A DNA stretch of 64,000 nucleotides from Candidatus Nomurabacteria bacterium (GTDB taxonomy: Bacteria; Patescibacteriota; Patescibacteriia; HK-STAS-PATE-3): contig CP060223.1 in the NCBI GenBank assembly GCA_023898465.1, forward strand, positions 512,001 to 576,000, given 5' to 3'. Both the position numbers and the translations under genes were made by a program. Under the pieces are notes generated by a model. It was not told where the DNA came from. It saw nothing but the letters and a program-made list of their open reading frames with translations, and did not search any database. Of the stretch, positions 11,529 through 39,750 are shown one piece after another (positions within the stretch are counted from its first letter, which is position 1; each line of letters begins with the position of its first letter).

Positions 11529-11546
11529 ACCCCCCCCTTTTTTTCT

Positions 11547-11885: not shown

Positions 11886-11925
11886 ATACTAAAGTATATC
11901 ACTTGCCTCGGTCTTTGCGTAGTAC

Positions 11926-24905: not shown

Positions 24906-25023
24906 ATTTTTTCTTGCACTGTTTACAAGTTTTCACTGACTCAGTATAACAGAAATCTTTTTTTAGCCCAAAAAAACCAAAGTGGCATGGAAAGAAACAA
25001 TACGTTATACTGCTCGTATGCAT
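24811..25023 (-). CDS. Possible small zinc-ribbon protein (70 aa) overlapping the 5' end of the 23760-24905 gene in another frame
   Basis: ATG at 25021-25023. CKQCKKKYEEGSEDYCASC forms a CxxC-x11-CxxC zinc ribbon with an acidic tail. It overlaps 95 nt of the neighbouring CDS, so it may be spurious. Confidence 0.2.
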   Translation of the reverse strand: MHTSSITYCFFPCHFGFFGLKKDFCYTESVKTCKQCKKKYEEGSEDYCASCLQQTQKEILGRWDDLEESD

Positions 25024-25398
25024 ATTATTTTTCGTTGGATTCTTAACGCACTCGCCCTCCTCCTGGTCGCCTATCTCCTGCCTGGATTTGCGGTTGATTC
25101 TTTTTATGCCGCGCTTATTACCGCGCTTATCCTAGGCATCCTGAACGCGGTTATCCGACCGCTGCTCATCATCCTCACCCTGCCCGTTACCATCCTCACT
25201 CTCGGACTTTTCACCTTTGTGATTAATGCCCTGCTTATCTGGTTTGTAGCGAGCTTTGTGCAAGGATTTCAGGTTGATGGATTTGGACCTGCTTTCCTAG
25301 CTGGATTACTACTTTGGATTATTTCTTGGTTCACCAACGGACTTACAAAAAAGCGCAACACAAAACCAAAAGTGGAAGTATTAGGTCAACCTAAATAG
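25018..25398 (+). CDS. Phage holin family 4_2 / DUF360 (YvlD-like) membrane protein
   Basis: MHIIFRWILNALALLLVAYLLPGFAV...NAVIRPLLIILTLPVTILTLGLFTFVINALLIW matches the DUF360 signature. ATG at 25018-25020. Confidence 0.65.
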   Translation: MHIIFRWILNALALLLVAYLLPGFAVDSFYAALITALILGILNAVIRPLLIILTLPVTILTLGLFTFVINALLIWFVASFVQGFQVDGFGPAFLAGLLLWIISWFTNGLTKKRNTKPKVEVLGQPK

Positions 25399-25404: not shown

Positions 25405-26886
25405 ATGCAACGCGCCTCCGGAGTCTTACTGCCGGTCTCTTCACTACCTAGTCCCTATGGCATTGGTGATTTTGGGCCATCTGCGTATACCTATGTAGAT
25501 TGGCTGCAGGAAGCAGGTCAGAGATACTGGACCATCCTGCCTCTCCTTATCCCTGACTCGCTGGGGTCACCCTTTAATACCGTTTCCGCCTTTGCGCTGA
25601 ATTGGCAACTTATTAGCCCGGAACTTCTGGTACAACAGAAACTCCTTGATGCAAAAACTGCTCGTGCGCTACAGAGTGATGCAAAACGAGTTCGCCATCG
25701 TGAGGTAGCGCAAACAAAACGCCGAATTTTGCACCAAGCTTGGAAATATTTCCTTCTTCATGCAAGCGCTCAGCAACGGCGTGACTTTGCTGCTTTTCAA
25801 AAGCAAGAAAAAGACTGGCTAGACGATTTTGCGCTTTATATGGCAATCAAAGAAACGCAGCGAGGTCGACCCTGGTTTCGTTGGATCAACGTCTATCGAG
25901 AACGAGATTTTAAAGCACTGCAAAAGTTTCGCGAGAAACAAAGCGATAGGATACAGCAGCACGCTTTTGGCCAATGGGTTGCTACTCAACAATGGCAGTC
26001 ATTAAAAGACTATGCCAATAAAAAAGGTGTGCGTATTTTTGGCGATCTCCCTTTCGCCGTAGCGCATGACAGCGTTGATGTTTGGAGTCATCCAGAACTT
26101 TTTTACATAAGCCCGCAGGGTAAATCCCTCCAAGTACTTGGAGTTCCACCTGATAGTTTTTCTAAAACCGGACAACTGTGGGGTTCACCGGCTTATAAGT
26201 GGAAAAAACACGCAGCTACTCACTTCCAGTGGTGGGTGCAACGCTTTGCTAAAGCAAGTCAGCTCTATGACATGCTCCGGCTCGATCATTTCCGTGGTTA
26301 CGCAGCGAACTGGGTTATTCCTGGAAAAGCAAAAACAGCCAAGGGTGGACACTGGGAAAAAGTGCCTGGTAAAAAACTCTTCCGCGCAATTCAGAAAAAG
26401 GCTCAACACCTACACTGTGTGGCCGAAGACCTGGGTGTCATAACACCGGATGTGATTGCGCTAAGGAATGCTCTTCAATTTCCCGGCATGCGCATACTTG
26501 AATTTGGCCTAAGTGATGGCAAGCGAAGTGTGCACCATCCTGATAATTATCCAATAAACTGTGTAGCCTATACCGGCACCCACGACCTCCCTCCACTCAA
26601 ACAGTGGTTCCACAATGCAAAGCGCACAAGTAAAATGAATGCGACACGCTATGGGCAGAGCGACACCCAACACATTGGGCAAAATCTCATCCACGCCCTG
26701 CTATGGAACAAAGCGAAAATAGTAATCATACAAATGCAAGACCTGCTTGCGCTTGGCCAGGGCAGCCGTATAAACACCCCAGCCACCAAGCGAAATAACT
26801 GGAGCTGGAGATTGACTTCGACCTCTCTCAGCAAAAAAACAGCGCGAGAGCTAAAAAGTCTGCTCAAAGAAACGCGTCGGATCTAG
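25405..26886 (+). CDS. malQ: 4-alpha-glucanotransferase (amylomaltase, GH77)
   Basis: N-terminal GVLLPVSSLPSPYGIGDFG and conserved GH77 catalytic regions (FRLDHFRGY, CVAEDLG). 493 aa. Confidence 0.9.
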   Translation: MQRASGVLLPVSSLPSPYGIGDFGPSAYTYVDWLQEAGQRYWTILPLLIPDSLGSPFNTVSAFALNWQLISPELLVQQKLLDAKTARALQSDAKRVRHREVAQTKRRILHQAWKYFLLHASAQQRRDFAAFQKQEKDWLDDFALYMAIKETQRGRPWFRWINVYRERDFKALQKFREKQSDRIQQHAFGQWVATQQWQSLKDYANKKGVRIFGDLPFAVAHDSVDVWSHPELFYISPQGKSLQVLGVPPDSFSKTGQLWGSPAYKWKKHAATHFQWWVQRFAKASQLYDMLRLDHFRGYAANWVIPGKAKTAKGGHWEKVPGKKLFRAIQKKAQHLHCVAEDLGVITPDVIALRNALQFPGMRILEFGLSDGKRSVHHPDNYPINCVAYTGTHDLPPLKQWFHNAKRTSKMNATRYGQSDTQHIGQNLIHALLWNKAKIVIIQMQDLLALGQGSRINTPATKRNNWSWRLTSTSLSKKTARELKSLLKETRRI

Positions 26887-26963
26887 TCTTTACTTTTCTT
26901 GTAGAATGCGATAAGTATTGTACAGATTTTGGATAGGTCGCACATTAAAATGGAGGTAATCGG

Positions 26964-27563
26964 ATGTCGCTTATTCAGGCTCGTGTACACGAGCAAATAG
27001 CCTTCAGCAATCAAGCTGATTTCACACGACTACTGCAGCGCTATCTCGTCGCGGACCAAATCCAGCCGGGGCATCAGAACGGTACAGCTGAAGTCTCGGA
27101 AAGGCCGCGGGTGGTTCGTTTTCCTGGATGCCTGGTAGTGACGGCCGCCTATCGAAACCTCGCAGTTGGAGGGATCGACCGGTCAGACCTGCACAGACTG
27201 CATCACTTGCACGCATCACTTCGCGCCGAGCTGTATGAACCTGATGAGCTGGCCCGGGTTGGATTCTGGTCGCAGACTGATCCGGCTGCCGTCGTCACTC
27301 TCACAGCCCTGGGTGGCGGGATTCAAGAGGTTCGCTTCTTCGAATCCGAATGGCAAAGGTGCGATCAAATTCCACTCTTCTTCCAACGACTCCGTGAAGA
27401 GCATGGCGATGACGCAAATATCATCGTGCTAGAAGCGGCAGCTGCGAAGGAGATGCTCGAACTGGGCATCACGCCAAAGAGCTTGCAGTGTTTCTTGGTC
27501 CAGATCGATGCCCACCGGGTTTCTGTCGTCGACAACTTCATGCCAACTTTCGTGCCCAAGTAG
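26964..27563 (+). CDS. Hypothetical protein (within GC-rich island)
   Basis: 199 aa. ATG with an upstream GGAGG Shine-Dalgarno. No domain recognised. Confidence 0.5.
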   Translation: MSLIQARVHEQIAFSNQADFTRLLQRYLVADQIQPGHQNGTAEVSERPRVVRFPGCLVVTAAYRNLAVGGIDRSDLHRLHHLHASLRAELYEPDELARVGFWSQTDPAAVVTLTALGGGIQEVRFFESEWQRCDQIPLFFQRLREEHGDDANIIVLEAAAAKEMLELGITPKSLQCFLVQIDAHRVSVVDNFMPTFVPK

Positions 27564-27575
27564 GAGGATCTCCCA

Positions 27576-27608
27576 GGCCCTGAGGTAAACACTTCAGGGC
27601 CTTTTTTA
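27576..27608 (+). terminator. Intrinsic terminator after the 26964-27563 gene
   Basis: Stem GGCCCTGAG/TTCAGGGCC with an 8-nt loop, followed by TTTTTTA. Confidence 0.55.
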
Positions 27609-27621
27609 TTTTACGTATGAC

Positions 27622-27649
27622 TTGACAAAAGCCCTCTTTTTAGTATACT
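27622..27649 (+). promoter_or_regulatory. Sigma70-like promoter TTGACA-N16-TATACT upstream of the 27719 gene
   Basis: TTGACA at 27622-27627 and TATACT at 27644-27649. The downstream gene has an AAGAGGAGG Shine-Dalgarno. Confidence 0.4.
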
Positions 27650-27718
27650 GGCCGGTCTAGAAATAGTAGTAGCTATCGAACGGAACGTATATTCACAAAG
27701 GGAAGAGGAGGCTCAAAC

Positions 27719-29161
27719 GTGGTGCAGAAGACTGCCACGGCTTGGGTCGTGGCATTCATTCTTCTGTTCTGCCACGCTCAAGCCTCGACTGCTACAGTCA
27801 CTCATTTCGTTTTTGGCATGCGCGGCAACGCGAATGTCGACGTGTGTGACAACGGCGACCTTCGCCAGTTTCACACCACGCCGGCAGGTGGACTCGTATT
27901 CACCAGTATGGGAGGTGGCGAATTCGAGATCGGTCTCGAGGGTCAAGTCAGCTGCAGTCGTGATGGAGGAGGTGGAGAAAACCTCATCCAAAACGGCGCT
28001 TTTGACCAGGGCACTTGCTCAGAATGGGAATTGGAGGACCCCAATGGACGCGCTGCAGCATCCTGTAGCAATGAGGGTCGCGTCACCGTGCAGAGTAGCG
28101 GACAATACTACGAAGTCCAGCTCAAGCAATCGATCCCGCTGATCAATGGTCAATGGTATCGTCTGAGCTTCGACGGCGACAGTAGCGTTCGCCACATCAT
28201 ACCGGTCGGAATTATCAATCCGGCCAGCTATGATTCGATCGGCCTCTGGGCTGATTGCGATCTGCACACCGATCGACGCAGCTTCGAATACCTTTTTCGC
28301 TCCAGTGAGACCATCTCTGATGCACGCTTCAGTTTCTACATTGGTGAACATCCGGCGACCTATCGTTTCGACAACGTAACGATAGTGCCGGTTGATCCCA
28401 GTGCAGACTGTTTCCGTGCTCCAGGTGAACTCATTGTGAACGGAGGGTTCGAGTGCGATCAGGTCTGCCAGCACGCTTGGCGATTCGAGGATCACTTTGG
28501 ACCCGGCTATGCTCTGTGCGATGCTGTGTCCCATAGTGGTGCTCACTCAGCCAAGCTACGACCAGCTCAAGCGGGTCAGTACTACGAAACGCAGTATCAG
28601 CAGCTTGTCACTGTCCAACAGGGACAACGCTATGAATTGCGTTTCTACGCCCGGACCAATCGTGACCCGCAGACTATTGTGGTCGAGCTGGTTGACCCAC
28701 AGAGCTTTGCGAACCGCGGACTCGTCTTTGGTCCCGTGCTCAACAGTAGCTGGACTGAGGTGCGACAAAGCTTCACTGCCAATCGTAGTGGTGTTGCTCG
28801 TCTCGGTTTTGCGGTTGGTAACTGGGACCCTGGTACTCCGGTCTGGATCGACGACGTCAGCTTGCGTCCGGTACTTAGCGTCGGAGGCGGTGACGCACAA
28901 AGCGCGACACCATCAGCCCTGGCCACCCAAGCGAACGCTGCAGTCTTTGCTCTAGAGCAACGAGCTGATGTTCGTATCAACGTCTTTGACGTGGGAGGAC
29001 GTCAAATTGCTGGCGAGTCTCGCTCCTTGTCTGCCGGGACTCATACCTACATCTGGGACGGATTGCTGCACAGCGGTGTCCGTGCTCCCAGCGGCATTTA
29101 CTTTGTCCAGGTCACCGGCGCTAGTGTCCATGCCATCAAACGCATTGTAATGGTGCGTTAG
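27719..29161 (+). CDS. Secreted protein with two CBM4/9-like carbohydrate-binding-type domains and a C-terminal T9SS type-A (Por/FlgD-Ig-like) sorting domain
   Basis: Signal peptide (MVQKTATAWVVAFILLFCHAQAST). Two NG(A/G)F(D/E)... jelly-roll-like segments. The C-terminal roughly 75 aa (VRINVFDVGGRQIAG...LSAGTHTYIWDGLLHSGVRAPSGIYFVQVTGASVHAIKRIVMVR) match the T9SS CTD consensus (vyDv.Gr.v...l.aG.h...WdG.d..G..v.sGvYfv.l). GTG start. Confidence 0.6.
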   Translation: MVQKTATAWVVAFILLFCHAQASTATVTHFVFGMRGNANVDVCDNGDLRQFHTTPAGGLVFTSMGGGEFEIGLEGQVSCSRDGGGGENLIQNGAFDQGTCSEWELEDPNGRAAASCSNEGRVTVQSSGQYYEVQLKQSIPLINGQWYRLSFDGDSSVRHIIPVGIINPASYDSIGLWADCDLHTDRRSFEYLFRSSETISDARFSFYIGEHPATYRFDNVTIVPVDPSADCFRAPGELIVNGGFECDQVCQHAWRFEDHFGPGYALCDAVSHSGAHSAKLRPAQAGQYYETQYQQLVTVQQGQRYELRFYARTNRDPQTIVVELVDPQSFANRGLVFGPVLNSSWTEVRQSFTANRSGVARLGFAVGNWDPGTPVWIDDVSLRPVLSVGGGDAQSATPSALATQANAAVFALEQRADVRINVFDVGGRQIAGESRSLSAGTHTYIWDGLLHSGVRAPSGIYFVQVTGASVHAIKRIVMVR

Positions 29162-29194
29162 AGGCTGGAACCATGCGTCAACACATCTACAACA

Positions 29195-29230
29195 GCGCCT
29201 GAAGAGATTTACTCTCTCAGGCGCTTTTTT
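29195..29230 (+). terminator. Intrinsic terminator between convergent genes
   Basis: Stem GCGCCTGAAGAG/CTCT-CAGGCGC (one bulge) followed by TTTTTT at 29225-29230. Confidence 0.55.
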
Positions 29231-29287
29231 GTATATGAAAAGCCGCCAAAGTTCCGAAGAAGCTTGGCGGCGAGAGACGAGGAGGGA

Positions 29288-29611
29288 TCAGGCGCCCTCA
29301 GTACTGACCTCCTCCTTCCCGCAAAGATGCAGGATGAATGACAATAGCGTGAGGAACCCGAGGATCCCGCCTGCAATAAGCAGGAACCAGCGGCCGAGGT
29401 CTCCGAAGAAACCCCGATAGACTCCTTCGATGAAGGGACGATGACCCGTGCCTTCAAACACGAGTACCGTGGGGAATCCTCCCCAAAACATGAGGAGGGA
29501 GATGATCGCAAGAGTCGCCACCGACACACCCATGGCAAAGGGCGACAGAATGATCGCCAGTCCCATGTGCTTTCCGACCAGCTTGAGCAAACCCGTAAAC
29601 AAGCGTGCCAT
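29288..29611 (-). CDS. Hypothetical membrane protein
   Basis: ATG at 29609-29611 (MARLFTGLLKLV...). Two or three TM helices. No family recognised. Confidence 0.45.
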   Translation of the reverse strand: MARLFTGLLKLVGKHMGLAIILSPFAMGVSVATLAIISLLMFWGGFPTVLVFEGTGHRPFIEGVYRGFFGDLGRWFLLIAGGILGFLTLLSFILHLCGKEEVSTEGA

Positions 29612-29721
29612 AATAGTATTCCTCGTATGTACCGACCTCAAAAGGTCGAGTTTGAGTCAATGTACAAAACGTATCTGGGCAATATAATAGCACATTTCGT
29701 TTATTTTGTCAATATATAAAG

Positions 29722-30996
29722 CTAAAATCTTGCTAATCTTGGCGAATTATCATGCAATACTGTGCTTGCTGCAATAGTTTTACGGAAGCCCACTCGCTCT
29801 TGCGCATGCTTCCGTACATTCCACATTGCTCCCCAACGCAACATATACGCACCATAACGCTCATGCACTCGATCAATCACTGCTTCAACAGCATCGTGAT
29901 TTACCTCGGGCCAAATCTTGAGCTGACCGCTCCTTGGGCGTAAGCGAAAAGTGCCTATGCCTAAAAAAGTAAGGAAGCGTCCATGAACTTCTGGTGCTAA
30001 CATATCCCAGGCCAATTGAAAAAGCTTTCGCCCTTCGCGTAGCCCATCACCTAACTTACGCTGTCCACCGTGTGAAGCGCCTTCAGCCATACGGGTATAT
30101 TCACTTGGCACACTGCGAGCCATTGCCCAGATGCCATGGGCTTCTAAGTTCTTCTGGCGCAATTCCCGAGCAGTCTTTTCGCAAAGCTTCATCAACACCG
30201 CTCGGTGAAAAGTGTGATCGCGCGTACGTTCACGCAAGACATGCGTATGTCCAATTGACTTCGGGTCTCGCTCCTCCTGCACACCGCCTAATTCAATCCC
30301 TTGCACATTTGCCCAGAGCTCATAGCCACGCACTCCGAGAGCCTCCATTAGATTAGTAACTGGATAGCGATAAAGATCCTCGAGAGTAAAAATACCTAAA
30401 GCATGCAGGCGACGTTCATAGCCCTTATTAATCCCCCAAGCCTCAGTCACTGGTCGGCCGGCCAAGTAGCTTGGCACCTGGCGCCGCTCAAGCACAACCG
30501 TCCCACCCTTTGGCGCAATATCAGAGGCGAACTTAGCTAACCAGCGAGTTGGTGCTACCCCAATGGAACACCGCAGCCACTCGCCCACCTCGCGAAAAAT
30601 ACGCTGACGAAAAGCCTCACCTATCTTCGCCACTTCATCAAGTGAATGGGCGTCACCAGTGAAATCAACAAAAGCCTCGTCAATTGAGTAAGGCTCGATA
30701 TCCTCAGAGTACTCAGCCATGATACGAAAAATTGCTTCAGTGGTGGAATGATACTTTGGTGGATCAACCTCTACCACCTTCAGGGCAGGATAAATGTGCA
30801 AACCATCCTTCACCCGCATACCAGTCACAATGCCTAACGCTTTTGCTTCTCGTGAAGTGGCAATCATGCAGCCTCCCGGCGCCATGGTGGCGGCAATGCC
30901 GACCGGCCGACCTCGCAACTTCGGATTCGCCTGCTGCTCGACTGAGGCGAAATACGAGTTCATATCGAAATGGAGAATGAGGCGAGAATGAGACAT
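29722..30996 (-). CDS. dinB: Y-family DNA polymerase IV
   Basis: N-terminal ILHFDMNSYFASVEQ and conserved palm/finger motifs (SIDEAFVDFTG, the catalytic D/E region). 424 aa. Confidence 0.85.
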   Translation of the reverse strand: MSHSRLILHFDMNSYFASVEQQANPKLRGRPVGIAATMAPGGCMIATSREAKALGIVTGMRVKDGLHIYPALKVVEVDPPKYHSTTEAIFRIMAEYSEDIEPYSIDEAFVDFTGDAHSLDEVAKIGEAFRQRIFREVGEWLRCSIGVAPTRWLAKFASDIAPKGGTVVLERRQVPSYLAGRPVTEAWGINKGYERRLHALGIFTLEDLYRYPVTNLMEALGVRGYELWANVQGIELGGVQEERDPKSIGHTHVLRERTRDHTFHRAVLMKLCEKTARELRQKNLEAHGIWAMARSVPSEYTRMAEGASHGGQRKLGDGLREGRKLFQLAWDMLAPEVHGRFLTFLGIGTFRLRPRSGQLKIWPEVNHDAVEAVIDRVHERYGAYMLRWGAMWNVRKHAQERVGFRKTIAASTVLHDNSPRLARF

Positions 30997-31136
30997 ACGA
31001 TTACTTAACTAGATTGACAAAACAAGCTTATGGGTGGTAAGTAAGAGGACTGTCTGATGCCCCTGAATCGGGTGTCTGTGAGCACTTACTCACATCCGTG
31101 GTGGAGACAGTGTTCCTTACACAGGAGGTAAAACCT

Positions 31137-31655
31137 ATGAGTCGCAAGAGTGCTCACCAAACGAGGACTCCATCAGACATCAACGAAGAATCACCCTTTC
31201 TCAGAACGCTCTACTATTCCTTGATGAAGTGGAGTACGGTCCCGAGGAAAGAGATCGTGCCCGAACTACAGGACGAAATGAGACTGCGAGCTGAGACAAT
31301 GGGTCTCAGCGTCACTCTCTCCAGCGGCGTTCAGGGACCGAGCTACACCGACGTCGTGCTTGGGCTTTACGTCCTGCTGACCCGTAGCTACGTCGAGAGG
31401 TCTATCCAGAACATCATCTGGGGAGTCCTGGGTCACTGCACAAATCATCAGTTCGCCAAGTTCATCCGTTTGACCAACGCGCGGCACAACCCTAATCCCG
31501 AGAGCAGGACAAGGGCGATGAGGGCGCTCTATGAAATCGCTTCATTGGGCCATAGTCGCTGGCTCAATGTTGGGAAGTCCTGGCAACGGGGCGCGAGGTG
31601 GCGCATGAACGAGCTGATCAACTCTGGTCGCTTCGAGGCCCCAATCTATTGGTAA
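31137..31655 (+). CDS. Hypothetical protein
   Basis: ATG at 31137 with an AGGAGG Shine-Dalgarno. 172 aa. No domain recognised. GC-rich. Confidence 0.45.
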   Translation: MSRKSAHQTRTPSDINEESPFLRTLYYSLMKWSTVPRKEIVPELQDEMRLRAETMGLSVTLSSGVQGPSYTDVVLGLYVLLTRSYVERSIQNIIWGVLGHCTNHQFAKFIRLTNARHNPNPESRTRAMRALYEIASLGHSRWLNVGKSWQRGARWRMNELINSGRFEAPIYW

Positions 31656-31666
31656 GGAAGCTACAT

Positions 31667-31699
31667 AGCCCAGACACTCCGGTGTGCTGGGCTTTTTTC
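31667..31699 (+). terminator. Intrinsic terminator
   Basis: Stem GCCCAGACAC/GTGTGCTGGGC followed by TTTTTT. Confidence 0.55.
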
Positions 31700-31884
31700 T
31701 ACTTCACAAACTCCACCTTTTCACACTCACTGCAATACATAGGCTTCATCGCATGCGTCACAAAGGAAGGTAAAGCACGCATAGGCTTAGCGCATTGACT
31801 GCAGCGCTTTGTGCCCCGCTCCTGTTTTGTTTCTCGAATCGTACGCGGTGTCATATATTTTCGTTTGCCCTCCATAGACACCAT
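31699..31884 (-). CDS. Small zinc-ribbon ORF (CxxC-x17-CxxC), possibly the C-terminal fragment of a frameshifted gene
   Basis: 61 aa with CSQCAKPMRALPSFVTHAMKPMYCSEC. Overlaps by 34 nt, in another frame, with the upstream 86-aa ORF. Confidence 0.3.
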   Translation of the reverse strand: MVSMEGKRKYMTPRTIRETKQERGTKRCSQCAKPMRALPSFVTHAMKPMYCSECEKVEFVK

Positions 31885-32111
31885 TCCAAGCGTATGGTGT
31901 CAAAACAAAGATCAAAAGTGTTGTCCTGGCTTGAAACAGCAAAATGATAATAAAGCTTATTGCCATCTCGGCGCCGATAGGTCAGATTCACCCGCTCCAC
32001 TCGATAGCGCTTCTTGCCCCAATGAAAAGCAATCGGCGTAACCTGACGGTCGCGAAAGGCTACTAAGACGCCGATGGGATCAGCTTCCTGGGTATATGCT
32101 TCGGATTGCAT
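31851..32111 (-). CDS. Hypothetical ORF, possibly the N-terminal fragment of the same disrupted gene
   Basis: 86 aa of ordinary composition. An overlapping downstream zinc-ribbon ORF suggests a frameshift or pseudogene. Confidence 0.3.
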   Translation of the reverse strand: MQSEAYTQEADPIGVLVAFRDRQVTPIAFHWGKKRYRVERVNLTYRRRDGNKLYYHFAVSSQDNTFDLCFDTIRLEWCLWRANENI

Positions 32112-32281
32112 GGCTTTTTCGCTTTTACTTACCTTTCTAGTATAACCGAAGAAAAACCGAAAGTCAACCCCGAGTGCAAACGAGGAGGGTGACTTTCGTC
32201 TCGCCCTTGCCTATCCCCCGCCTTTGCTCTAGGCTACACTGCAGACCTTTGCTCTTTACCGTCCTGACCAAAGGAGGCACT

Positions 32282-32680
32282 ATGGTCATCGGAAACGTCG
32301 GAGCAGCGCTACTGCACCAACGTCATGGTGTCCGAGTCTTTCTCTATGTTTTGCATGCAACGCGAAAGTGCGTGATCGTGCCACTGCAAACCGAGTCAGC
32401 CATCCTCACCACGGCCGAAGTTCCAACGGTCATTAGGAGAGTCCTGGAAGTCGAAACCAGCCTCACGAAGGGTGCGGCTAGCTTCAGTCTACTTCTCCGC
32501 TCTCGCCGAAACCCTGATCGTCTGGAAACCTGGGATATCGAAAATCCTGAAGGAGATATCACCTTCAAGCCCGGAGCTACAGCAACGGAAGTCACCAACC
32601 GTGTGAGAACAGCGATCATGGCACACCAAGATCGGGAACGCGTGTTTCCCGAGCTCGAACAATCTACCACCGCGGCCTAG
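32282..32680 (+). CDS. Hypothetical protein
   Basis: ATG at 32282 preceded by an AAAGGAGG Shine-Dalgarno. 132 aa. No domain recognised. Confidence 0.4.
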   Translation: MVIGNVGAALLHQRHGVRVFLYVLHATRKCVIVPLQTESAILTTAEVPTVIRRVLEVETSLTKGAASFSLLLRSRRNPDRLETWDIENPEGDITFKPGATATEVTNRVRTAIMAHQDRERVFPELEQSTTAA

Positions 32681-32695
32681 TGCTGCGGTGGCTTC

Positions 32696-34465
32696 TTATG
32701 TAAATTTGATAACCTGCCCAGGTTGAAGAGACTTACCTGATTGCGTCTGTGGCTGACTATGTTTCTCTTGTGCCTGAACAGACTTTGACTGCTCAGCTTG
32801 CTTCGGAGTATTTTTGGCTGGCTGACTCTTTTCCTGAGGTTGCTTCTTCTTAGGCTTCGCTGTGAATTGCACAGGACCTTTACTCAGCGCCTCGTGTAAG
32901 CTAATTTCTTTTGGTGGCTCAGGAGCTACTTCACGCAACTGCTCAGGCTCAGGTGCCGTTTGTGTAAAATTCGGTCGATCGTTTCTTCCCTGCTCTCGCT
33001 CATTGCGTGGACGGGAGCTGTTTTGATTACCTTGAGGATTTGGTTGACGATTTCGGTCATTCCCGCCTGATCGTTGTCGAGATCCGCCGCCTTGATTTTG
33101 ACGCGGTCCACTTCCCCCTCGACGATCATTTCCACCCCTATTACCGCCGCTACGATTTCCGCCACCCTGGGAACCCTGTCCGAGGAAGATTTCATCAACT
33201 CCAGTCCATCGGCGGATTTTATCTTCTACAATCTCTCGCTTCTTAGCATAGCGCTCACGTGACACCTCAATCACTTTTTGCCCATTACCGGTTGGACCGC
33301 TCACTGGCTCCAGAGTTGTAGCGGAAAAAGGCTCAGAAGCTACTCCATCAATCATTAAGCGGAGATAAATATCGTACTTGGTCAGGTTTACTAAATCAGT
33401 CTCAGTGAAGGTGGGATCAAACTCTTTAGCCAAAAACTCTGCATCAGCGGCACCAACACGGAAACACACGATCGATCCGACGTTGCCAAAAACAGCCGCG
33501 CGAACTTGCTCATCTAACTGCTCAATATACTGGTGAGCCATGATAAGATTTAAGCGATACTTACGCGCCTCTGACAAAATGTTGGCAAAGCTCTCAGTGG
33601 CAAAGTTTTGAAATTCGTCAACATAGAGGAAAAAATCTTTACGATCTTTTTCCGCAATGTCTACGCGACTCATGGCCGCCAACTGAATCTTGGTAATCAT
33701 CATACCACCCAGCAAAGCTGCATTATCTTCACCAATACGGCCTTTGGAAAGGTTCAGTAAGACAATCTTTTGCTCGTCCATCAATTGCCGCAAATCAAAA
33801 GTACTCTTCGGCTGGCCAATGATATTACGAATCATTGATGAGGAAAGAAATTGACCAATCTTGTTTTGGATAGGTGAAACAGCTTCGGTACGGAATTGGT
33901 TAGCGTATTGGCCGAATTCCTCATGCCAGAAAGCCTTCACAATAGGATCAGTTAGCTTCTCCACCACTTTTGATCGATAGTCGTTGTCGACGAGAATACG
34001 AGGAATACCCAAAAGTGTTGACCCAGGATACTCAATCAAGGAGAGAATACTATTGCGCAAAATGTATTCCAATCGAGGTCCCCATGAGTCGCTCCACATT
34101 TTTTTAAACACCGAAACAAGACCCGAGGCTACTAAGTGGCGGTGGGCAGGGTTTACACTTTCTAAGACGTTGAAGGCTACCGGATAATCTACATCAGCCG
34201 GATTAATATACACCACATCATTAATTCGATGTGAAGGAATGTAATCTAAAATCTTTTCCACAAAGTCACCGTGCGGATCAATCACAGCTAAGCCATGACC
34301 AGCTCGCACATCCTGGATCATCATATTTTCAAGCACCGTCGTCTTACCCATACCGGTCTTACCGATAAAGTACATGTGACGGCGTCGATCATCTATTCTA
34401 ATACCAAAGCGCCGCTGCTGATTGCGGAAATTCGTTTTAGCAAAAAAATTAATATCTTCACTCAT
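32696..34465 (-). CDS. VirD4/TraG/TraD-family type IV coupling-protein-like P-loop ATPase with a Gly/Arg/Gln-rich C-terminal tail
   Basis: Walker A GKTGMGKTT. Walker B plus TraG-D_C-like segment LYVDEFQNF...ARKYRLNLIMAHQYIEQL. The C-terminal roughly 170 aa are low complexity (GGNRSGGNRGGNDRRGGSGPRQNQGGG...). Confidence 0.7.
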   Translation of the reverse strand: MSEDINFFAKTNFRNQQRRFGIRIDDRRRHMYFIGKTGMGKTTVLENMMIQDVRAGHGLAVIDPHGDFVEKILDYIPSHRINDVVYINPADVDYPVAFNVLESVNPAHRHLVASGLVSVFKKMWSDSWGPRLEYILRNSILSLIEYPGSTLLGIPRILVDNDYRSKVVEKLTDPIVKAFWHEEFGQYANQFRTEAVSPIQNKIGQFLSSSMIRNIIGQPKSTFDLRQLMDEQKIVLLNLSKGRIGEDNAALLGGMMITKIQLAAMSRVDIAEKDRKDFFLYVDEFQNFATESFANILSEARKYRLNLIMAHQYIEQLDEQVRAAVFGNVGSIVCFRVGAADAEFLAKEFDPTFTETDLVNLTKYDIYLRLMIDGVASEPFSATTLEPVSGPTGNGQKVIEVSRERYAKKREIVEDKIRRWTGVDEIFLGQGSQGGGNRSGGNRGGNDRRGGSGPRQNQGGGSRQRSGGNDRNRQPNPQGNQNSSRPRNEREQGRNDRPNFTQTAPEPEQLREVAPEPPKEISLHEALSKGPVQFTAKPKKKQPQEKSQPAKNTPKQAEQSKSVQAQEKHSQPQTQSGKSLQPGQVIKFT

Positions 34466-34468
34466 GGA

Positions 34469-35887
34469 TTATATTGGGAGATTACTGGGCGGTTGATCCT
34501 TTTCCTCGGCGTCCGAACTGAGCACCTCTTGATCAGGGTCCACCGGCACGGACTGAACTTGCTTTGCTCGACGAATTGGCACCACTTCAACTGGTAAACT
34601 GCTTGGAGGTTCAGCGCGGCGAGCTTCTGTCTTCTGCACTAATGGAGCTTTCACGTTCACTACTGGGAAGTGATAAATGGTGGCAAGCTCTTCAATGTTC
34701 AGCACATAGGGATCAGCACCGGTCGACATGTCACGATTTTGGAAGGCTCGTAAAATTCGCTTCTTCTTAGTGGCAATCCGTTTTTCTTTACCCAAGTATT
34801 TTGCTTTTGGCTTTGTCTTCTTATCGACTTTGAAGCCATTCATGTCCAGGGTATTAAATTGCTTTAAGGCTCCGGTAATACCTGGCACGCGATCCTTGGA
34901 AAAAGAATCGCCTTCGCCTAAGTATACAATACGCATTTTACAATCGAAATAGAGCTTGGCGGTCTTGTACGAAATCGCTTCAATAACTGCTTTATCGTTT
35001 GGCGTTAAGTGACTCATGATAGAAGCCTCTTTTGAATCCGAGGATTCCTCTTTACCAAAAGGACTGACAAGGTCAGCGGTAAAGGTTTCAGTCAAGCCAC
35101 TGGCAACCTGTTTTGGTAGCCAAAGCACATTATCAAGCAAGCCTCCACCACCTCCACTTGATCCATAGGTTGCCTTAGCGAGCTTCTTAATAATTCCCCG
35201 AGCTCCATCCAGCCACGAATCATCATCTGGTGGCACAATCATTGTCTGAATCCAAAGCTGCTCACCTGGTCGTAAGCGGCTCATATATTCAAGCAGTGAT
35301 GCCATCGGATCAAGCAGCTGCTGCGTCATCGTATGCTCAAAAGCCGGATAGGTGCGGATCGGGTAATAATCCTTTTGACGCAACACAATATCCGCTCCCC
35401 AGAGATCGTACTCTTCGTTTGGAAACTGGGCGACAAACTGCTGGGTGTAGTCCTCTACTTCGCTAATTTCCGCGTCTGGATACTGTGCGTAAAAAGCCGA
35501 CTCAACTAAATCACGATATTGAATAGGAATCCGCACGAGATATTGGATAAAGCCGCCGATGCTGATAATTTCAAAGCTGAGCGGTGGCTGAAACTCTCCC
35601 TTAATATTTTTTTCGTACCAGGAGGGTGCTGACTCAACACCATGGATGTGCGCAAAAGCTGACTCGAGCGCCTTCGGTGTCTGCTCAGTTTCACGTGGTA
35701 CATCAATCGCTAAAATGACGTACTCAATAGTAGACGCAAAACGCTCCTGGGCGTAACCAGTCCATAGCTTGAAGCCTCCCCAAAACAACGCAACGATAAT
35801 AATAAGCCAGCCGCCATGTGTAAAGAGAAACCAGGTGATGGCGAAAGGGTTAGAAAATTCGCTGAGGAAGGAAAAATCAATTGTCAT
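34469..35887 (-). CDS. Hypothetical membrane protein, conserved partner immediately upstream of the VirD4-like ATPase
   Basis: 472 aa with an N-terminal TM (WFLFTHGGWLIIIVALFWGGF) and a Gly run (SSGGGGGLL). Its stop lies 4 nt from the ATPase start. Confidence 0.55.
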   Translation of the reverse strand: MTIDFSFLSEFSNPFAITWFLFTHGGWLIIIVALFWGGFKLWTGYAQERFASTIEYVILAIDVPRETEQTPKALESAFAHIHGVESAPSWYEKNIKGEFQPPLSFEIISIGGFIQYLVRIPIQYRDLVESAFYAQYPDAEISEVEDYTQQFVAQFPNEEYDLWGADIVLRQKDYYPIRTYPAFEHTMTQQLLDPMASLLEYMSRLRPGEQLWIQTMIVPPDDDSWLDGARGIIKKLAKATYGSSGGGGGLLDNVLWLPKQVASGLTETFTADLVSPFGKEESSDSKEASIMSHLTPNDKAVIEAISYKTAKLYFDCKMRIVYLGEGDSFSKDRVPGITGALKQFNTLDMNGFKVDKKTKPKAKYLGKEKRIATKKKRILRAFQNRDMSTGADPYVLNIEELATIYHFPVVNVKAPLVQKTEARRAEPPSSLPVEVVPIRRAKQVQSVPVDPDQEVLSSDAEEKDQPPSNLPI

Positions 35888-35920
35888 TTGCGTGTTTGTT
35901 TGAGCACGGACGGAAAAGGG

Positions 35921-37066
35921 CTAGGCTGTGGGTATTTCGGGTGGTGTTTGCGTTAAGGTATAGTCCCCGTTATCTAATCGAGTAAACATTTGTCGATTGG
36001 TCAGCGCCAAATGAATGGTGTTCTTTTTCACGACACGCTGAGAAAGCACCTCAGCAACCAGTGCTTCTCGGCTCATCGGCTCACCTTTTTTGCGAAGAAT
36101 GTCAGCTAACACTTCAGCTACCACACCTTCTTTGTAGCCCCACTCGCGCAAGGCATAAATTCCACGGCCAACTAACACATATTCCTTATTGAGAATCAGC
36201 TCATTATGCACGGTCGGCGGATATGCTTTACGAGGATCAAAGCCGGCGGTATTAATCCGCTTTGCAATTTCAGTGAAGTGAAGAGGTTGGCCCTCTTTCT
36301 TTAGGATAAGGTAAATCTTATCATTCATACGACGAGGAGAAATGCTTCCCCAGCTCGTCAAACCATATTCGTCAAAAGGATTGCGTCCTAAATCCTTACC
36401 CAGCTGCAAGGCTGAATGCAACATATCATCTGACAACGCATGCTCATGAATTTTTGCAAACTCTGTCTGGCGAAACTCTTGGAGTAAGTCTGGCAACTCA
36501 ACCGGGTGTCCGATCTTGGTAACCACGCTGACTAACTCACGAACAGTCTGTCGCAAGAGATCGAGTCCGGCACCCTTTAGTTTCCAGGCCCGGCGCATTG
36601 TTTCGCTCTCAGGCATCAATTCAACAGTATCTTTTAGTAATTCACTCAAGACAAAAATAACCGCTCGGCGATTCATGTCGCTTGGACCAGAAAAGCTGAG
36701 TAAGTGTTCGAGGAGCGCTTCCTCTTCCATAATGCCGCCCCGAGCAGTCAGCGTGGTAGTCAAAAGCTGCTGCACCTGGTGCATTACCTGATCAAAGACC
36801 TTGGCTCGGCGGATTTTCTTTACCGCAGTTCCCTCAATCTGGCGAATACGCTCACGAGTAACCTGATAAAGCGCACCAATCTCTTCTAGGGTCTGCGTTT
36901 CTTTGCCGCTTAAACCGTGTCGGCGACGTAAAATATCCTCTTCCTTTCCTGTTAGCTCTTTGAGTAACAAAGAAATGGTTTCAGAGGGGTTAAATTGCTC
37001 CATATCAGTTTGCTGCTTGGAGCTGAGGATTTTGTCCAAAATTGAGTTGGACTCGTTTGTATCCAT
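35921..37066 (-). CDS. Sigma-70 region-4-type HTH domain protein fused to a large C-terminal domain (putative transcription regulator)
   Basis: N-terminal LEEIGALYQVTRERIRQIEGTAVKKIRR is a region-4 HTH. The remaining roughly 300 aa have no recognised domain. ATG at 37064-37066. Confidence 0.55.
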   Translation of the reverse strand: MDTNESNSILDKILSSKQQTDMEQFNPSETISLLLKELTGKEEDILRRRHGLSGKETQTLEEIGALYQVTRERIRQIEGTAVKKIRRAKVFDQVMHQVQQLLTTTLTARGGIMEEEALLEHLLSFSGPSDMNRRAVIFVLSELLKDTVELMPESETMRRAWKLKGAGLDLLRQTVRELVSVVTKIGHPVELPDLLQEFRQTEFAKIHEHALSDDMLHSALQLGKDLGRNPFDEYGLTSWGSISPRRMNDKIYLILKKEGQPLHFTEIAKRINTAGFDPRKAYPPTVHNELILNKEYVLVGRGIYALREWGYKEGVVAEVLADILRKKGEPMSREALVAEVLSQRVVKKNTIHLALTNRQMFTRLDNGDYTLTQTPPEIPTA

Positions 37067-37100
37067 TGACGTATTGCTTACAATCAAGCGTACTAACGAT

Positions 37101-37129
37101 AATATAGCACATTAGCAAAAATATGTCAA
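37101..37129 (-). promoter_or_regulatory. Sigma70-like promoter (minus strand) TTGACA-N17-TATATT upstream of the region-4 HTH gene
   Basis: Reverse complement of 37124-37129 is TTGACA and of 37101-37106 is TATATT, with a 17-nt spacer. Confidence 0.35.
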
Positions 37130-37177
37130 GCTATTTGACCAAAACAAAAAACCTTTCAATCCGTCCCCTATCTTAGC

Positions 37178-38089
37178 TTAACGAAAGCGTCGCGCTCGCC
37201 AATTATGCCACTCAACCAATAACGTGCTGGCAATGAAAATTGAGGAGTAAGTTCCCACGATAATACCCGCAATCAGCGCTATCACAAACATACGAATTGA
37301 CTCTCCTCCCAGTACCGCCAGAGCAACTAATACAAACAATGTCGTCATCGAGGTATTAATAGAGCGCGACATGGTCTCATTAATACTCCGGTTAGCGATT
37401 TCTTCAAAAGGCTCATTATGATAACGCTGGATACCCTCACGAATACGATCAAAAACAACAATGGTATCGTGCACTGAGAATCCTAGCACCGTAAGTAAAG
37501 CTGTTACAAAAAGTGAATCAACCTCTGTGCCAAATATCTGACCAAAGAGCACAAAGAGACCTACGATAATAGAAATATCATGAATCAATGCAACAATCGC
37601 GCCAACGCCAAATACCCAACTGGGCACCGGTCCGCCACGAGAAATCTTACGGAAGGCCCAAGTGATATACGCGATGATACCTATGAGAACTAAAGCAATG
37701 GCTGAATACGCTTTCTTGCGCAACTCTTGACCAATACTCGGTCCAATCGCAGTAAATGAATCTTCACTCACCTGCTCTTCTTGTAAAGCGCTTAAGGCAT
37801 CTAGGACTGATTGGCGCTCGTCATTGCTTAAGGCGCGTGTTTTTAGGATGAGGCTTTTTTCGTTAGAAGGAACTGCTTGATAAGAACCCAGGTCTAGAGG
37901 ATTCAATGCGTCTTGTATCGTCGAAAGTTCTGGACGAAGTTCTGGGAAGCTTATCTCCAATCGAGAACCGCCAGTGAAATCAATACCAGGCTTCAAGCCC
38001 CAAATCAAAGCACCGACAATAGAGGCCACAACAAGTATCGCGGAAATGATAGTAAAATATTTTCGCTTTTGGATAATCTTTAGCGTCAT
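37178..38089 (-). CDS. secF: Protein translocase subunit SecF
   Basis: SecF-type N-terminus (IIQKRKYFTIISAILVVASIVG...GIDFTGG) and a 6-TM SecDF C-domain. Its ATG at 38087-38089 overlaps the secD TGA (ATGA). Confidence 0.85.
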   Translation of the reverse strand: MTLKIIQKRKYFTIISAILVVASIVGALIWGLKPGIDFTGGSRLEISFPELRPELSTIQDALNPLDLGSYQAVPSNEKSLILKTRALSNDERQSVLDALSALQEEQVSEDSFTAIGPSIGQELRKKAYSAIALVLIGIIAYITWAFRKISRGGPVPSWVFGVGAIVALIHDISIIVGLFVLFGQIFGTEVDSLFVTALLTVLGFSVHDTIVVFDRIREGIQRYHNEPFEEIANRSINETMSRSINTSMTTLFVLVALAVLGGESIRMFVIALIAGIIVGTYSSIFIASTLLVEWHNWRARRFR

Positions 38090-39750
38090 ACTTGTTCCTT
38101 CTTCCGTACTCCATACAGCCAGGCCACACTCACCCATCGTTGAGTGAGACGTAAGAATGTGCGCGTAACTACAATGGCTGAAAACATACTTACTAAAATA
38201 CCAATCGCTAAGGTAATCGCGAATCCTTTAATGATACTTGTACCAAACCAGGCCAAGATAAAAGTGGTAATTAAACTTGAAATGTTTGAATCGCGAATAG
38301 ACAACCAAGCGCGTCGGAAACCCTCTTCAATCGCTTGATTAAGTGGTCGACCTTCACGCAACTCTTCTTTCATGCGTTCAAAAATAAGCACGTTTGCGTC
38401 TACTGCCATTCCGATGGAAAGAATAAATCCAGCAATTCCAGCTAGAGTCAAAGTCACTGGCCAGAGAATAAAGATGGCAAAAACTACGGCGGAGTATACC
38501 CCTAAAGCCAAAACTGAGATAAGGCCAGGCAAGCGATAATAGAGAATCATAAAGAGCGCAACTAAGCCGAGCCCAATTATGCCAGCAACAAAACTAGACT
38601 GCACTGAACGCTCACCAAGGGTTGGTCCTACATTCTGTTGAGAAACAAGCGTAATTGGTACTGGCAGTGCACCAGCATTTAAATTACGAGCTAAGTCTCG
38701 CGCTTCTTGCAAGGTAAAATCACCTGAGATAACCGCTTCTCCACTCGTGATAGCCTGCTGAACTGTTGGTAAGCTTAATGGGAAGCCATCTAAATAAATA
38801 GCCACCACCTTGCCAACATTGCGCTCAGTAATTTCTTTAAAAAGCTGTGTACCCTCGCTATTGAAATTCAAACTAATCTCTGGAGTATTGGTAGTTTGAT
38901 CAAACACGACTGAAGCTCGTTCCAAATCCTTACCCGATAGCCCAGTTGCCACAAAATCGGTTGAGGGTTCAGTTGACTGCAGTATAAAAAGAATATGACT
39001 ACCTTGAACTTCTCGCACATCTTGCCCATCTTGATTCGCTGTACGCTCGTCGGTCTTCTTAATAATATGCAGACCGAATTGCGATTCAACCAGCTCCGGA
39101 TACACCTGCCCGACCGCTAAATCACCGAAGAGAACGTCATCGAATTCTTGCACGAAAGTGCCTTGTTGCGCAAAACCGAGATCGCCCCCATTATCTTTAC
39201 TACCCGGATCTTCGGAATAGAGTTGGGCCAATTGAGCAAAATCAGCGTCAGGTTGAAGCGCTTGTGCTAATACGTCTTGTGCTTTTTTTCGCACTTCTTC
39301 GTTTTGCGCCTCTATGGCTGCTGGATCCTCTGGTGTGGTCTCAATCTGTTCACGAAATTCTAAGGTTGGAGTTTGACCAATCTGCGCGATTGCCTGGTTC
39401 ACGTCAGTGACACCTGGTAATTCAATCGAGACTCGCCATTGATCGCCAGCCTTTTGCGTTTGGACAACTGGCTCGGATACACCAAAGGCATTCACTCGAC
39501 GCTCAATAACATCGCGAACACCTTCTACAGCGTCTTGCGCCTCAGCTGGAGCTACTTGCGATAGATCAGCGTCATAGAGCAATGACACGCCGCCTTGCAA
39601 ATCCAAACCCAGCTGAACAGGTAAATCAATAGTCCAGTCTACTGGCCCTACGTGAATCCGGATTGGTTTTTGATAGTCAATGGTACCAGCTAGCAGGGTG
39701 AGCAATAGAATCCCGGCAAAACTGAGCCAAACTTTCTTCCGTACGGTCAT
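38086..39750 (-). CDS. secD: Protein translocase subunit SecD
   Basis: GLDLQGG motif, a periplasmic P1 domain and a C-terminal 6-TM domain. 554 aa. Confidence 0.9.
   Translation of the reverse strand: MTVRKKVWLSFAGILLLTLLAGTIDYQKPIRIHVGPVDWTIDLPVQLGLDLQGGVSLLYDADLSQVAPAEAQDAVEGVRDVIERRVNAFGVSEPVVQTQKAGDQWRVSIELPGVTDVNQAIAQIGQTPTLEFREQIETTPEDPAAIEAQNEEVRKKAQDVLAQALQPDADFAQLAQLYSEDPGSKDNGGDLGFAQQGTFVQEFDDVLFGDLAVGQVYPELVESQFGLHIIKKTDERTANQDGQDVREVQGSHILFILQSTEPSTDFVATGLSGKDLERASVVFDQTTNTPEISLNFNSEGTQLFKEITERNVGKVVAIYLDGFPLSLPTVQQAITSGEAVISGDFTLQEARDLARNLNAGALPVPITLVSQQNVGPTLGERSVQSSFVAGIIGLGLVALFMILYYRLPGLISVLALGVYSAVVFAIFILWPVTLTLAGIAGFILSIGMAVDANVLIFERMKEELREGRPLNQAIEEGFRRAWLSIRDSNISSLITTFILAWFGTSIIKGFAITLAIGILVSMFSAIVVTRTFLRLTQRWVSVAWLYGVRKKEQV

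Follow-up and report, generated by a model that had tools for sequence, protein, structure and literature searches.

A mosaic region in a Candidatus Nomurabacteria genome carrying a putative secreted glycan-binding protein with a FlgD-Ig/T9SS-type C-terminal domain

The subject of this study is a GC-rich region at positions 26951–32691 of a 64,000-nucleotide stretch (the window) of the genome of a Candidatus Nomurabacteria bacterium (GCA_023898465.1, contig CP060223.1, positions 512,001 to 576,000), a member of the Candidate Phyla Radiation (CPR, Patescibacteria). A first, sequence-only reading had taken this region for a single island recently acquired, possibly from a donor of the Fibrobacteres-Chlorobi-Bacteroidetes (FCB) group, or else for an assembly chimera. 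The best-supported description is that of a mosaic, in which a native backbone of malQ and the dinB-z61-h86 genes is interspersed with small, self-contained, foreign-looking insertions. One of these is a 2.8-kb cassette encoding a protein with a predicted signal peptide, two carbohydrate-binding modules (CBM) and a C-terminal domain (CTD, or tail) of the kind used for sorting by the type IX secretion system (T9SS). On balance we favour the view that this cassette was acquired horizontally and has been kept as a secreted, T9SS-independent glycan binder. The region and its two flanking genes contain the following features:

25405–26886, plus strand: malQ, 4-alpha-glucanotransferase (NF011080, 574 bits); native left flank
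26964–27563, plus strand: h199, hypothetical cytoplasmic protein of 199 amino acids (aa), with a GGAGG Shine-Dalgarno (SD) site and an ATG start; first gene of the cassette
27575–27602, plus strand: intrinsic terminator after h199, a 12-bp stem followed by TTTTTATTTT
27622–27649, plus strand: promoter-like TTGACA-16-TATACT sequence (extended form TTGACAAAA) upstream of the CBM gene, 11/12 matches
27719–29161, plus strand: predicted secreted 480-aa CBM/CTD protein, with a GAGGAGG SD site and a GTG start (Pfam, NCBIfam, AlphaFold2, Foldseek)
28934–29158, plus strand: C-terminal domain (residues 406–480) of the CBM/CTD protein, FlgD-Ig / T9SS type-A-like
about 29194–29231, plus strand: intrinsic terminator after the CBM gene, AGCGCCTGA...TCAGGCGCT and then TTTTTTG, read from the sequence
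29288–29611, minus strand: h107, small membrane protein with 2–3 hydrophobic helices by hydropathy; last gene of the cassette
29722–30996, minus strand: dinB, Y-family DNA polymerase with IMS and IMS_C domains, no SD site; native
31137–31655, plus strand: h172, hypothetical protein, with an AGGAGG SD site and TTGACAAAA at 31014
31699–31884, minus strand: z61, small CxxC...CxxC zinc-ribbon protein (58 aa if it starts at 31875), overlapping the end of h86; native
31851–32111, minus strand: h86, conserved 86-aa protein of no known family, upstream partner of z61; native
32282–32680, plus strand: h132, hypothetical fast-evolving protein, GC 0.549, with an AGGAGG SD site
32667–32691, plus strand: terminator-like hairpin between h132 and the TrwB-like gene, a 10-bp stem with 8 GC pairs
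32696–34465, minus strand: VirD4/TrwB-like coupling-protein ATPase (TrwB_AAD_bind); native right flank, opening a conserved CPR block

Foreign-looking and native genes can be told apart by three independent signals: the synteny of an empty site, the GC content at third codon positions (GC3), and the use of SD sites in an SD-poor host. The empty site was found in the closest dinB relative on a long contig (L092, GCA_043800725.1), whose gene order is MnmA, a 382-aa gene, a holin-like gene, malQ, dinB, a 55-aa zinc-ribbon gene and an 86-aa gene, the last two overlapping by 4 nucleotides (nt). The amino acid identities to the window are 62% for MnmA, 72% for the holin-like gene, 47% for malQ, 65% for dinB and 71% for h86. 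The convergent malQ and dinB genes are 43 nt apart in L092 and 2835 nt apart in the window, where the gap holds h199, the CBM/CTD gene and h107; all three are absent from the L092 site. Since they are syntenic with malQ in L092, dinB, z61 and h86 are native neighbours of malQ. The named relatives of dinB, with 48–65% identity, are all Patescibacteria (including Kerfeldbacteria and Parcubacteria); the taxonomic check once proposed for the island proteins thus gave no foreign affiliation for this gene. The synteny between the window and L092 stops at a 247-aa transposase-like open reading frame (ORF; 211–954 in L092, weak IS66 DDE match, E 0.006), which follows the 86-aa gene at the end of the contig.

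A second contig, L089 (6.4 kb), comes from a different run and a different strain, with 85–95% nucleotide identity to the window. Its gene order is malQ, h199, the CBM gene, a 105-aa gene, dinB, two small genes, h132 and the 3' end of the TrwB-like gene. The genes of the region are not present or absent as one unit: L092 is without h199, the CBM gene and h107 but has dinB, z61 and h86, while in L089 only h172 is missing and h107 is different, the gene being replaced by that of a non-homologous 105-aa membrane protein (about 41% nucleotide identity). The insertion of h172, which lies between dinB and the zinc-ribbon gene, is strain-specific and separate; the gene is absent from both L089 and L092, whose spacers at this point are 325 and 245 nt. 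The h199 proteins of the window and L089 share 64% amino acid identity with a ratio of nonsynonymous to synonymous substitution rates (dN/dS) of 0.17, and h199 is therefore a real gene. h132 is 51% identical to its L089 counterpart (dN/dS 0.28) and was not seen in L092, whose contig ends nearby.

The GC content of the region is not uniform with that of its surroundings. The most GC-rich 5741-bp window of the whole 64 kb starts at 26951 (GC 0.527), against a mean of 0.461 ± 0.011 and a maximum of 0.495 for windows of this size outside the region. In 1-kb windows the values are 0.49–0.56 inside and about 0.43–0.48 in the flanks; the contrast of 52–62% with 40–48% given at first was thus real, although its upper end of 62% was overstated. 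The 5-kb window 27001–32000 is also the strongest tetranucleotide outlier (z = 2.9), and the sliding GC and tetranucleotide check suggested for the island accordingly came out positive. The rise is uneven from gene to gene. The five lineage-specific genes (h199, CBM, h107, h172 and h132) have GC 0.55–0.57 and GC3 0.56–0.69, with h199 at GC 0.555 and GC3 0.595, h107 at GC3 0.685 and h172 showing the highest GC3 of the region (0.694). The values for dinB are GC 0.51 and GC3 0.475, those for the two small minus-strand genes z61 and h86 are GC 0.47–0.48 and GC3 0.47–0.53, and most flanking genes have GC 0.42–0.48 and GC3 0.35–0.48. In L092, too, dinB and the 86-aa gene are richer in GC (0.48–0.50) than their neighbours (0.38–0.45), so part of the rise is intrinsic to dinB and h86. 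As dinB is native, GC elevation alone over-calls the island.

The third signal was obtained by pairing the upstream regions with the canonical anti-Shine-Dalgarno sequence. The duplex energy of the five lineage-specific genes averaged -10.3 kcal/mol, as against -1.8 kcal/mol for 28 other genes, among them dinB, z61 and h86 (Mann-Whitney p = 6e-4); 26 of these 28 ATG-start genes had sites weaker than -7 kcal/mol. The sites of h199, the CBM gene, h172 and h132 are strong, and that of h107 is weaker. The early remark on strong AGGAGG sites was therefore right and informative. The GTG starts claimed together with them hold clearly for the CBM gene only, the others being longest-ORF artefacts in which the SD site points to an ATG (31137 and 32282). 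Promoters of the TTGACA(AAA) type lie some 100 nt upstream of the inserted genes, followed by long leaders and the AGGAGG sites. Many host genes have a TATACT/TATAAT-like -10 box some 6–10 nt before the ATG; examples of host genes with a missing SD site or such a box are those at 4624–5880, 9191–9736, 25018–25398, 32696–34465, 38086–39750 and 61909–62823. This arrangement suggests that leaderless transcripts are widespread in the host.

The cassette's central gene encodes a 480-aa protein, of which a full-length AlphaFold2 (AF2) model was made (mean predicted local distance difference test score, pLDDT, 77.6). Its predicted parts are:

residues 1–23: signal peptide (AQA|ST), with a signal helix at 5–17
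residues 26–73: small beta domain
residues about 86–225: CBM4_9 module, jelly roll 1
residues about 237–384: CBM4_9 module, jelly roll 2
residues 387–405: disordered linker
residues 406–480: C-terminal domain, a beta sandwich at 407–478 in the AF2 model

The N-terminus (MVQKTATAWVVAFILLFCHAQA|ST) has a charged n-region, the hydrophobic helix and an AxA site, and the protein is probably exported by the Sec pathway. Two stretches match the Pfam model CBM_4_9 (PF02018) with 61.4 bits against a cut-off of 25.9, and both have the jelly-roll fold, in agreement with the original description of a signal-peptide protein with two CBM4/9-like modules. In Foldseek the body of the protein matched the tandem CBM22 structure 4xup, the CBM4 structures 1gui, 3k4z and 2y64, and the surface glycan-binding protein (SGBP) SGBP-B, with E-values of 1e-12 to 1e-8. 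Glycan binding, and with it a surface or attachment role, would be consistent with this architecture. A word-based homologue search with the protein yielded just three weak relatives; in an exhaustive HMMER search the number was 3319 at E <= 1e-3. The only end-to-end homologue among these is P0262, with 42% identity and the same architecture. It sits on two 2.2-kb contigs (L090/L091) of 58% GC, from ERZ27254745 and ERZ28564302, and has GGAGGAGG as its SD site. The NCBI model of the CBM protein (USN54044.1, 470 aa) starts 10 codons past the SD-supported GTG (27719–27748) and so loses the signal peptide's n-region; the longer, 480-aa reading agrees with P0262, and its start is conserved in L089.

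The tail ends at the last residue (480) of a protein with a predicted N-terminal Sec signal. It matches FlgD_ig (PF13860) with 29.6 bits, above the gathering cut-off of 27, and TIGR04183 (Por_Secre_tail) with 20.5 bits (E 3.6e-4), below the cut-off of 23; PF18962 gave no match at E <= 0.01. The TIGR04183 cut-off is passed by P0262 (27.9 bits) and by seven more distant relatives (26–38 bits). In an alignment with 20 relatives that carry the domain at their extreme C-terminus, the tail of the window shares the whole domain with them and keeps the end motifs 'PSGIYFVQV' and 'KRIVMVR'. Most relatives have an N-terminal PNPF motif, which is missing from the tail ('ATQANAAVFALE') and likewise from P0262, P0324 and P0331. 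The domain also occurs as internal repeats, with 45 internal copies in 8 of 150 relatives. Modelled alone with AF2, the tail had a pLDDT of 89.6 and formed an Ig-like beta sandwich of six strands of at least 3 residues plus two short bridges. Its best Foldseek match was FlgD (7eh9; TM 0.73, root mean square deviation 1.9 A, 28–29% identity), followed by PorU (6za2), PorZ (5m11), the NucA CTD (8glk_D), the mirolase CTD (8qb1) and the RgpB CTD (7pq4); the Ig fold alone does not separate T9SS CTDs from FlgD. The named relatives belong to candidate division KSB1 (two) and Bacteroidota ('Por secretion system C-terminal sorting protein'), and one is labelled 'Patescibacteria group bacterium' (P0349). 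Sequence and model together support homology of the tail to T9SS type A sorting domains. What the sequence-only reading called a T9SS/FlgD-Ig tail is thus upheld by homology and by fold, and is borderline by the curated cut-offs.

The tail is maintained and not decaying, since only 2 nonsynonymous as against 9 synonymous codon differences separate it from that of L089 (dN/dS 0.07). The entire CBM protein is 94.8% identical to the L089 protein, with 91.7% nucleotide identity and a dN/dS of 0.08. Nucleotide identities of 87–93% for the malQ body and 89.5% for dinB show that the divergence of the CBM gene matches that of core genes, and the cassette therefore predates the split of the window strain and L089. 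A later transfer of the CBM gene between the strains, considered on account of a malQ dS of 0.99, was rejected: the divergent 3' end of malQ inflates this dS, and the malQ body matches CBM and dinB.

From these data we propose the following history. The genes malQ on the left and dinB with its zinc-ribbon and 86-aa companions are native. Three elements are lineage-specific and look foreign, namely (a) the 2.8-kb cassette of h199, CBM/CTD and h107, (b) the 172-aa gene and (c) the 132-aa gene, and the five genes concerned carry their own consensus promoters, long leaders, AGGAGG sites and terminators and show the highest GC3. Cassette (a) would have been gained once the L092 lineage had branched off but before the two strains, now about 90% identical, diverged. 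Homology and a few named relatives point to T9SS-bearing bacteria of the FCB type as the ultimate origin of the tail; the immediate donor would have used SD sites and could be another CPR bacterium. The CBM/CTD protein would leave the cell by its Sec signal peptide and bind glycan through its two CBM4/9 jelly rolls, and the FlgD/T9SS-type Ig domain may have been kept as a folded surface or interaction module. It is presumably not a T9SS export signal here, as neither an outer membrane nor a T9SS is expected in the host. CPR bacteria have been proposed to lack an outer membrane (10.1101/2025.01.22.634366), and among the ORFs scanned in the 64-kb window there was no T9SS component. A heliorhodopsin gene is present at 10746–11528 (Pfam 329 bits), followed by a GC-rich 167-aa orphan gene; heliorhodopsins have been reported only from monoderms.

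Several observations weigh against this history. The empty malQ/dinB site is shown by one outgroup, L092, where synteny alone would also fit a loss; no integrase, tRNA, att-like repeat or transposase was found at the insertions; and the call of a signal peptide comes from visual inspection and the AF2 helix rather than from a dedicated predictor. P0262, on its short contig, shares the CPR-like TTGACAAAA promoter. One CTD relative, P0349, is labelled Patescibacteria, and a search of the tail profile against 0.87 Mb of CPR loci translated in six frames matched one locus, L030 (28% GC; TrwB-like gene, DUF8128, form II/III-type RuBisCO, AMP phosphorylase and an e2b2-like gene). At 10800–13174 this locus encodes two adjacent proteins whose tail is a canonical Por_Secre_tail domain, one of 626 aa, with a PF18962 score of 37.1 bits against a cut-off of 27, and one of 109 aa that consists of a signal peptide and the tail only. 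The P0349 label and the L030 proteins mean that the tail family could be long resident in CPR.

Perhaps, then, there was no transfer from outside CPR at all, the deviant GC, SD sites and promoters being gene-specific expression signals of a resident family that the L092 lineage has lost. P0262, with its promoter and SD site of the same kind, would fit such a residence, as would the purifying selection and core-like divergence between strains, and dinB and h86 demonstrate that GC can be gene-intrinsic here. We nevertheless regard it as unlikely. The tail genes of L030 are themselves elevated in GC (0.37–0.39) against their surroundings (0.26–0.31), the named relatives and most of those bearing PNPF are of the FCB type, five neighbouring orphan genes share a deviant GC3 and SD signature, and the cassette's site is empty in L092. 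We therefore retain horizontal acquisition of the cassette, its direction being read from the one empty-site outgroup together with the composition and SD evidence.

Since the tail genes of L030 are GC-elevated as well, repeated import is suggested. A wider proposition, that Patescibacteria repeatedly acquire secreted proteins ending in a T9SS type A sorting domain and keep them under purifying selection, can be built on the closed Nomurabacteria genome, the sister strain, L030 and P0349, but is in our opinion doubtful. If true, it would give the domain a second, T9SS-independent role in epibionts, for example in anchoring to their own wall; at its boldest it would mean mimicry, by which a T9SS-bearing host's attachment complex would fasten the lectin of the symbiont to the host surface. 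We found no report in the literature of T9SS or C-terminal sorting domains in CPR/Patescibacteria.

That the whole 5.7 kb is one island, recently received from a T9SS-bearing FCB-group donor, we hold to be very unlikely. Such an island would explain the continuous GC elevation, its sharp limits where malQ and the TrwB-like gene end, and the KSB1 and Bacteroidota relatives of the tail. The right flank (TrwB/VirD4-like ATPase, DUF8128, sigma-70/HARE-HTH, SecF, SecD) has the same order in many of 80 related metagenome loci (L008–L087), and dinB, malQ or the CBM gene adjoins TrwB in 0/80 of these, as an island would also predict. However, dinB, z61 and h86 have malQ for a neighbour in L092 and are without SD sites, like host genes; the relatives of dinB are Patescibacteria; the core-like divergence from L089 makes the region not recent; h172 is a separate indel; and mobility genes and att sites were not found in the region. 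Bacteroidota make little use of SD sites, and the strong AGGAGG sites fit a direct Bacteroidota donor poorly for this reason. The single recent FCB island is thus replaced by the mosaic with an older acquisition. Of the proposed horizontal transfer, what survives is the cassette's absence from the L092 site, its GC3 and SD contrast and the FCB-type relatives of its tail; the transfer is neither recent nor does it include the whole region. The secD-secF-sigma70/HARE-HTH-DUF8128-TrwB synteny (32696–39750) always stops at the 3' end of the ATPase gene, which is therefore a recurrent breakpoint.

A further suggestion is that the tail works on the machinery of the host cell, whose PorU/PorZ attachment complex would anchor the secreted lectin of the episymbiont to the host surface. 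Strong purifying selection on the tail in an organism expected to be without T9SS, the retention of the D and E end motifs with loss of the N-terminal PNPF, and the recurrence of such tails in CPR-type sequences, CPR bacteria living as epibionts, are all compatible with it. It is purely speculative, though, FlgD-type Ig domains also occur as the internal repeats mentioned above, which have no sorting role, and the fold of the tail is closest to FlgD itself; we consider it highly improbable.

The assembly of the region was followed through NCBI records and Logan contigs. The window's malQ is 100% identical to USN54042.1, and malQ and the proteins of the region are identical to USN54042-45 and USN53053-57, which sit together on a single 1,082,586-bp NCBI contig of 'Candidatus Nomurabacteria bacterium', a metagenome-assembled genome (MAG). 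A scan of species-representative genomes with malQ gave only matches of 29–40% identity (a cyanobacterium and a Clostridia MAG), the lineage not being among the representatives. Logan contigs from two runs match the window at 26877–39161 (100%) and 29441–40867 (99.99%), and contigs L003 and L088 join the region to 8–13 kb of typical CPR genes at 99.99–100% identity. Two Logan contigs both stop at 26877, 9 nt before the malQ stop, and several left-flank proteins (malQ and those of 399, 260 and 785 aa) had no exact match in those runs; a chimeric left half, briefly suspected from the missing matches, was settled by L089 and the NCBI record. Sliding identity to L089 is 87–93% over the malQ body, 87–97% over the CBM gene and 81–96% over dinB, whereas the last 300 nt or so of malQ plus h199 form a hypervariable stretch (26550–27650) with 67–77% identity between the strains; for the 3' end of malQ the figure is 69–76%. 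De Bruijn graph assemblies often break at variable stretches, and the hypervariability explains why contigs end at 26877. A second hypervariable stretch relative to L089 lies at 29290–29620 (h107). The region is covered by three independent assemblies, of which that of L089 spans both borders. The option that assembly or binning had made a chimera, by attaching foreign DNA to a CPR contig near 26.9 and 32.7 kb, had the contig ends and missing left-flank matches in its favour and is refuted to our satisfaction by the contigs of two runs, by the continuity of L089 from malQ through the region into the TrwB-like gene in another run and another strain, and by the 1.08-Mb source contig.

The 9-mer TTGACAAAA occurs five times in the window, against about one expected, at 27622, 29704 (minus strand), 31014, 52596 (minus strand) and 61575 (minus strand). 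Each copy lies upstream of a GC-rich gene, namely those for CBM, h107 (promoter at 29704–29712), h172, a CsrA-domain protein and a 271-aa protein; in L089 it likewise precedes the CBM gene, and in L090/L091 it precedes P0262. Its use as an indicator of foreign genes was rejected, since 80 other CPR loci contain it 3.3 times per 64 kb, and it is probably a general CPR promoter form. A 16-nt inverted repeat around dinB (29701–29716 and 31010–31025), met in the repeat search, is just two divergent TTGACAAAA promoters. The intrinsic terminators reported earlier were recovered at 27575–27602, 32667–32691 and about 29194–29231, the last of which the scanner did not list because its loop is longer than 8 nt.

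In dinB both parts of a Y-family polymerase, the core (PF00817, IMS, 130.7 bits) and the little finger (PF11799, IMS_C, 35.5 bits), were identified, as had been predicted. Its scores with the NCBIfam Pol IV models (160–200 bits) are under their equivalog cut-offs, and it is therefore assigned at family level and not to a specific orthologue. The supposed frameshift-like split gene at 31699–32111 is in fact two overlapping small genes, since z61 and h86 are conserved as a pair in both L089 and L092. z61 shares 77% amino acid identity with L089 and 50% with L092 over the zinc ribbon; it has weak zinc-ribbon matches only and is not annotated in the NCBI record. h86 is 98.8% identical to its L089 counterpart (dN/dS 0.02). 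The trio of dinB, zinc-ribbon and 86-aa genes is conserved at 29722–32111 in the window, 1716–3633 in L092 and 3570–5590 in L089, and small genes of the z61/h86 type overlap or are translationally coupled. Together they may serve the CPR Y-family polymerase as a so far uncharacterised accessory pair.

For h199, h107, h172, h86 and h132 there was no match in Pfam, NCBIfam, PHROGs, PADLOC or PDB, and a permissive Pfam scan of the small proteins returned only weak zinc-ribbon matches. Nothing in the results from PHROGs, PADLOC, viral-contig scans and PDB sequence searches pointed to phages, plasmids or defence systems as the origin of the hypothetical proteins. No integrase or transposase domain was detected in any gene of the region with Pfam, NCBIfam and PHROGs; tRNA and Rfam scans of the window found nothing, and a repeat search gave no att-like flanking repeats but only short, chance-level ones.

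Outside the region, only the repetitive 1806-aa gene at 14523–19943 rivals its tetranucleotide deviation (z = 2.7); the product has LVIVD repeats and fibronectin type III and purple acid phosphatase N-terminal-type domains. Five lone GC-rich genes (10233–10736, 44987–45670, 52072–52569, 60736–61551 and 62898–63320) stand among neighbours of about 45% GC, with GC 0.52–0.57 and GC3 0.56–0.61. That at 44987–45670 has a strong GGGGAGG SD site and a weak phosphoribosyltransferase-like PHROG match, and that at 52072–52569 encodes a CsrA domain. These genes may be further small insertions of the same kind.

What is new about this region is no more than the unusual host in which a known domain occurs, and it is a modest curiosity rather than a new system. 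Its point is that a lineage presumably incapable of using a T9SS-type sorting domain has conserved one, with similar cases in other Patescibacteria, and for annotation it is a warning that a 'T9SS sorting domain' match does not imply T9SS. If general, it would bear on surface decoration or host attachment in ultrasmall epibionts, and on the role of T9SS-like tails outside T9SS organisms.

With the genomic islands of reduced genomes the region has in common deviant GC and tetranucleotides, orphan genes, promoter-gene-terminator units and differences in presence and absence. It differs from them in having no integrase, tRNA target, direct repeats or transposase, and in that the deviant stretch is interleaved with native genes and made up of several small insertions. 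Tandem CBM4/CBM22 proteins and SGBPs (Xyn10C CBM22-1/CBM22-2, 4xup; Bacteroides thetaiotaomicron SGBP-B, 7kwb; CBM4, 1gui) likewise have two tandem jelly rolls, and the absence of a catalytic domain is another likeness to the SGBPs. The sequence identity is, however, only 13–23%, and unlike the SGBP genes the CBM gene has beside it no polysaccharide utilisation locus or glycoside hydrolase except the native cytoplasmic malQ. The FlgD Ig domain (PF13860; 7eh9, 3osv) is the one whose Pfam cut-off the tail passes and the best structural match, but the CBM protein has neither the N-terminal region nor the flagellar gene context of FlgD, and its domain ends a secreted, lectin-like protein. Compared with T9SS type A proteins such as RgpB, PorU, PorZ and NucA, the tail is below the TIGR04183 and PF18962 cut-offs, is without PNPF and occurs in a host expected to be without outer membrane or T9SS, and hence would not be usable in the canonical T9SS way. 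The overall plan is nevertheless the same, with a Sec signal, modules and a C-terminal Ig-like sandwich of about 75 aa, and the tail shares with these proteins the motifs 'V.L.VFD..GR.V', 'G.H...WDG' and 'PSG.YF' and the basic hydrophobic end '(K/R)..(M/L).V(R/K)'.

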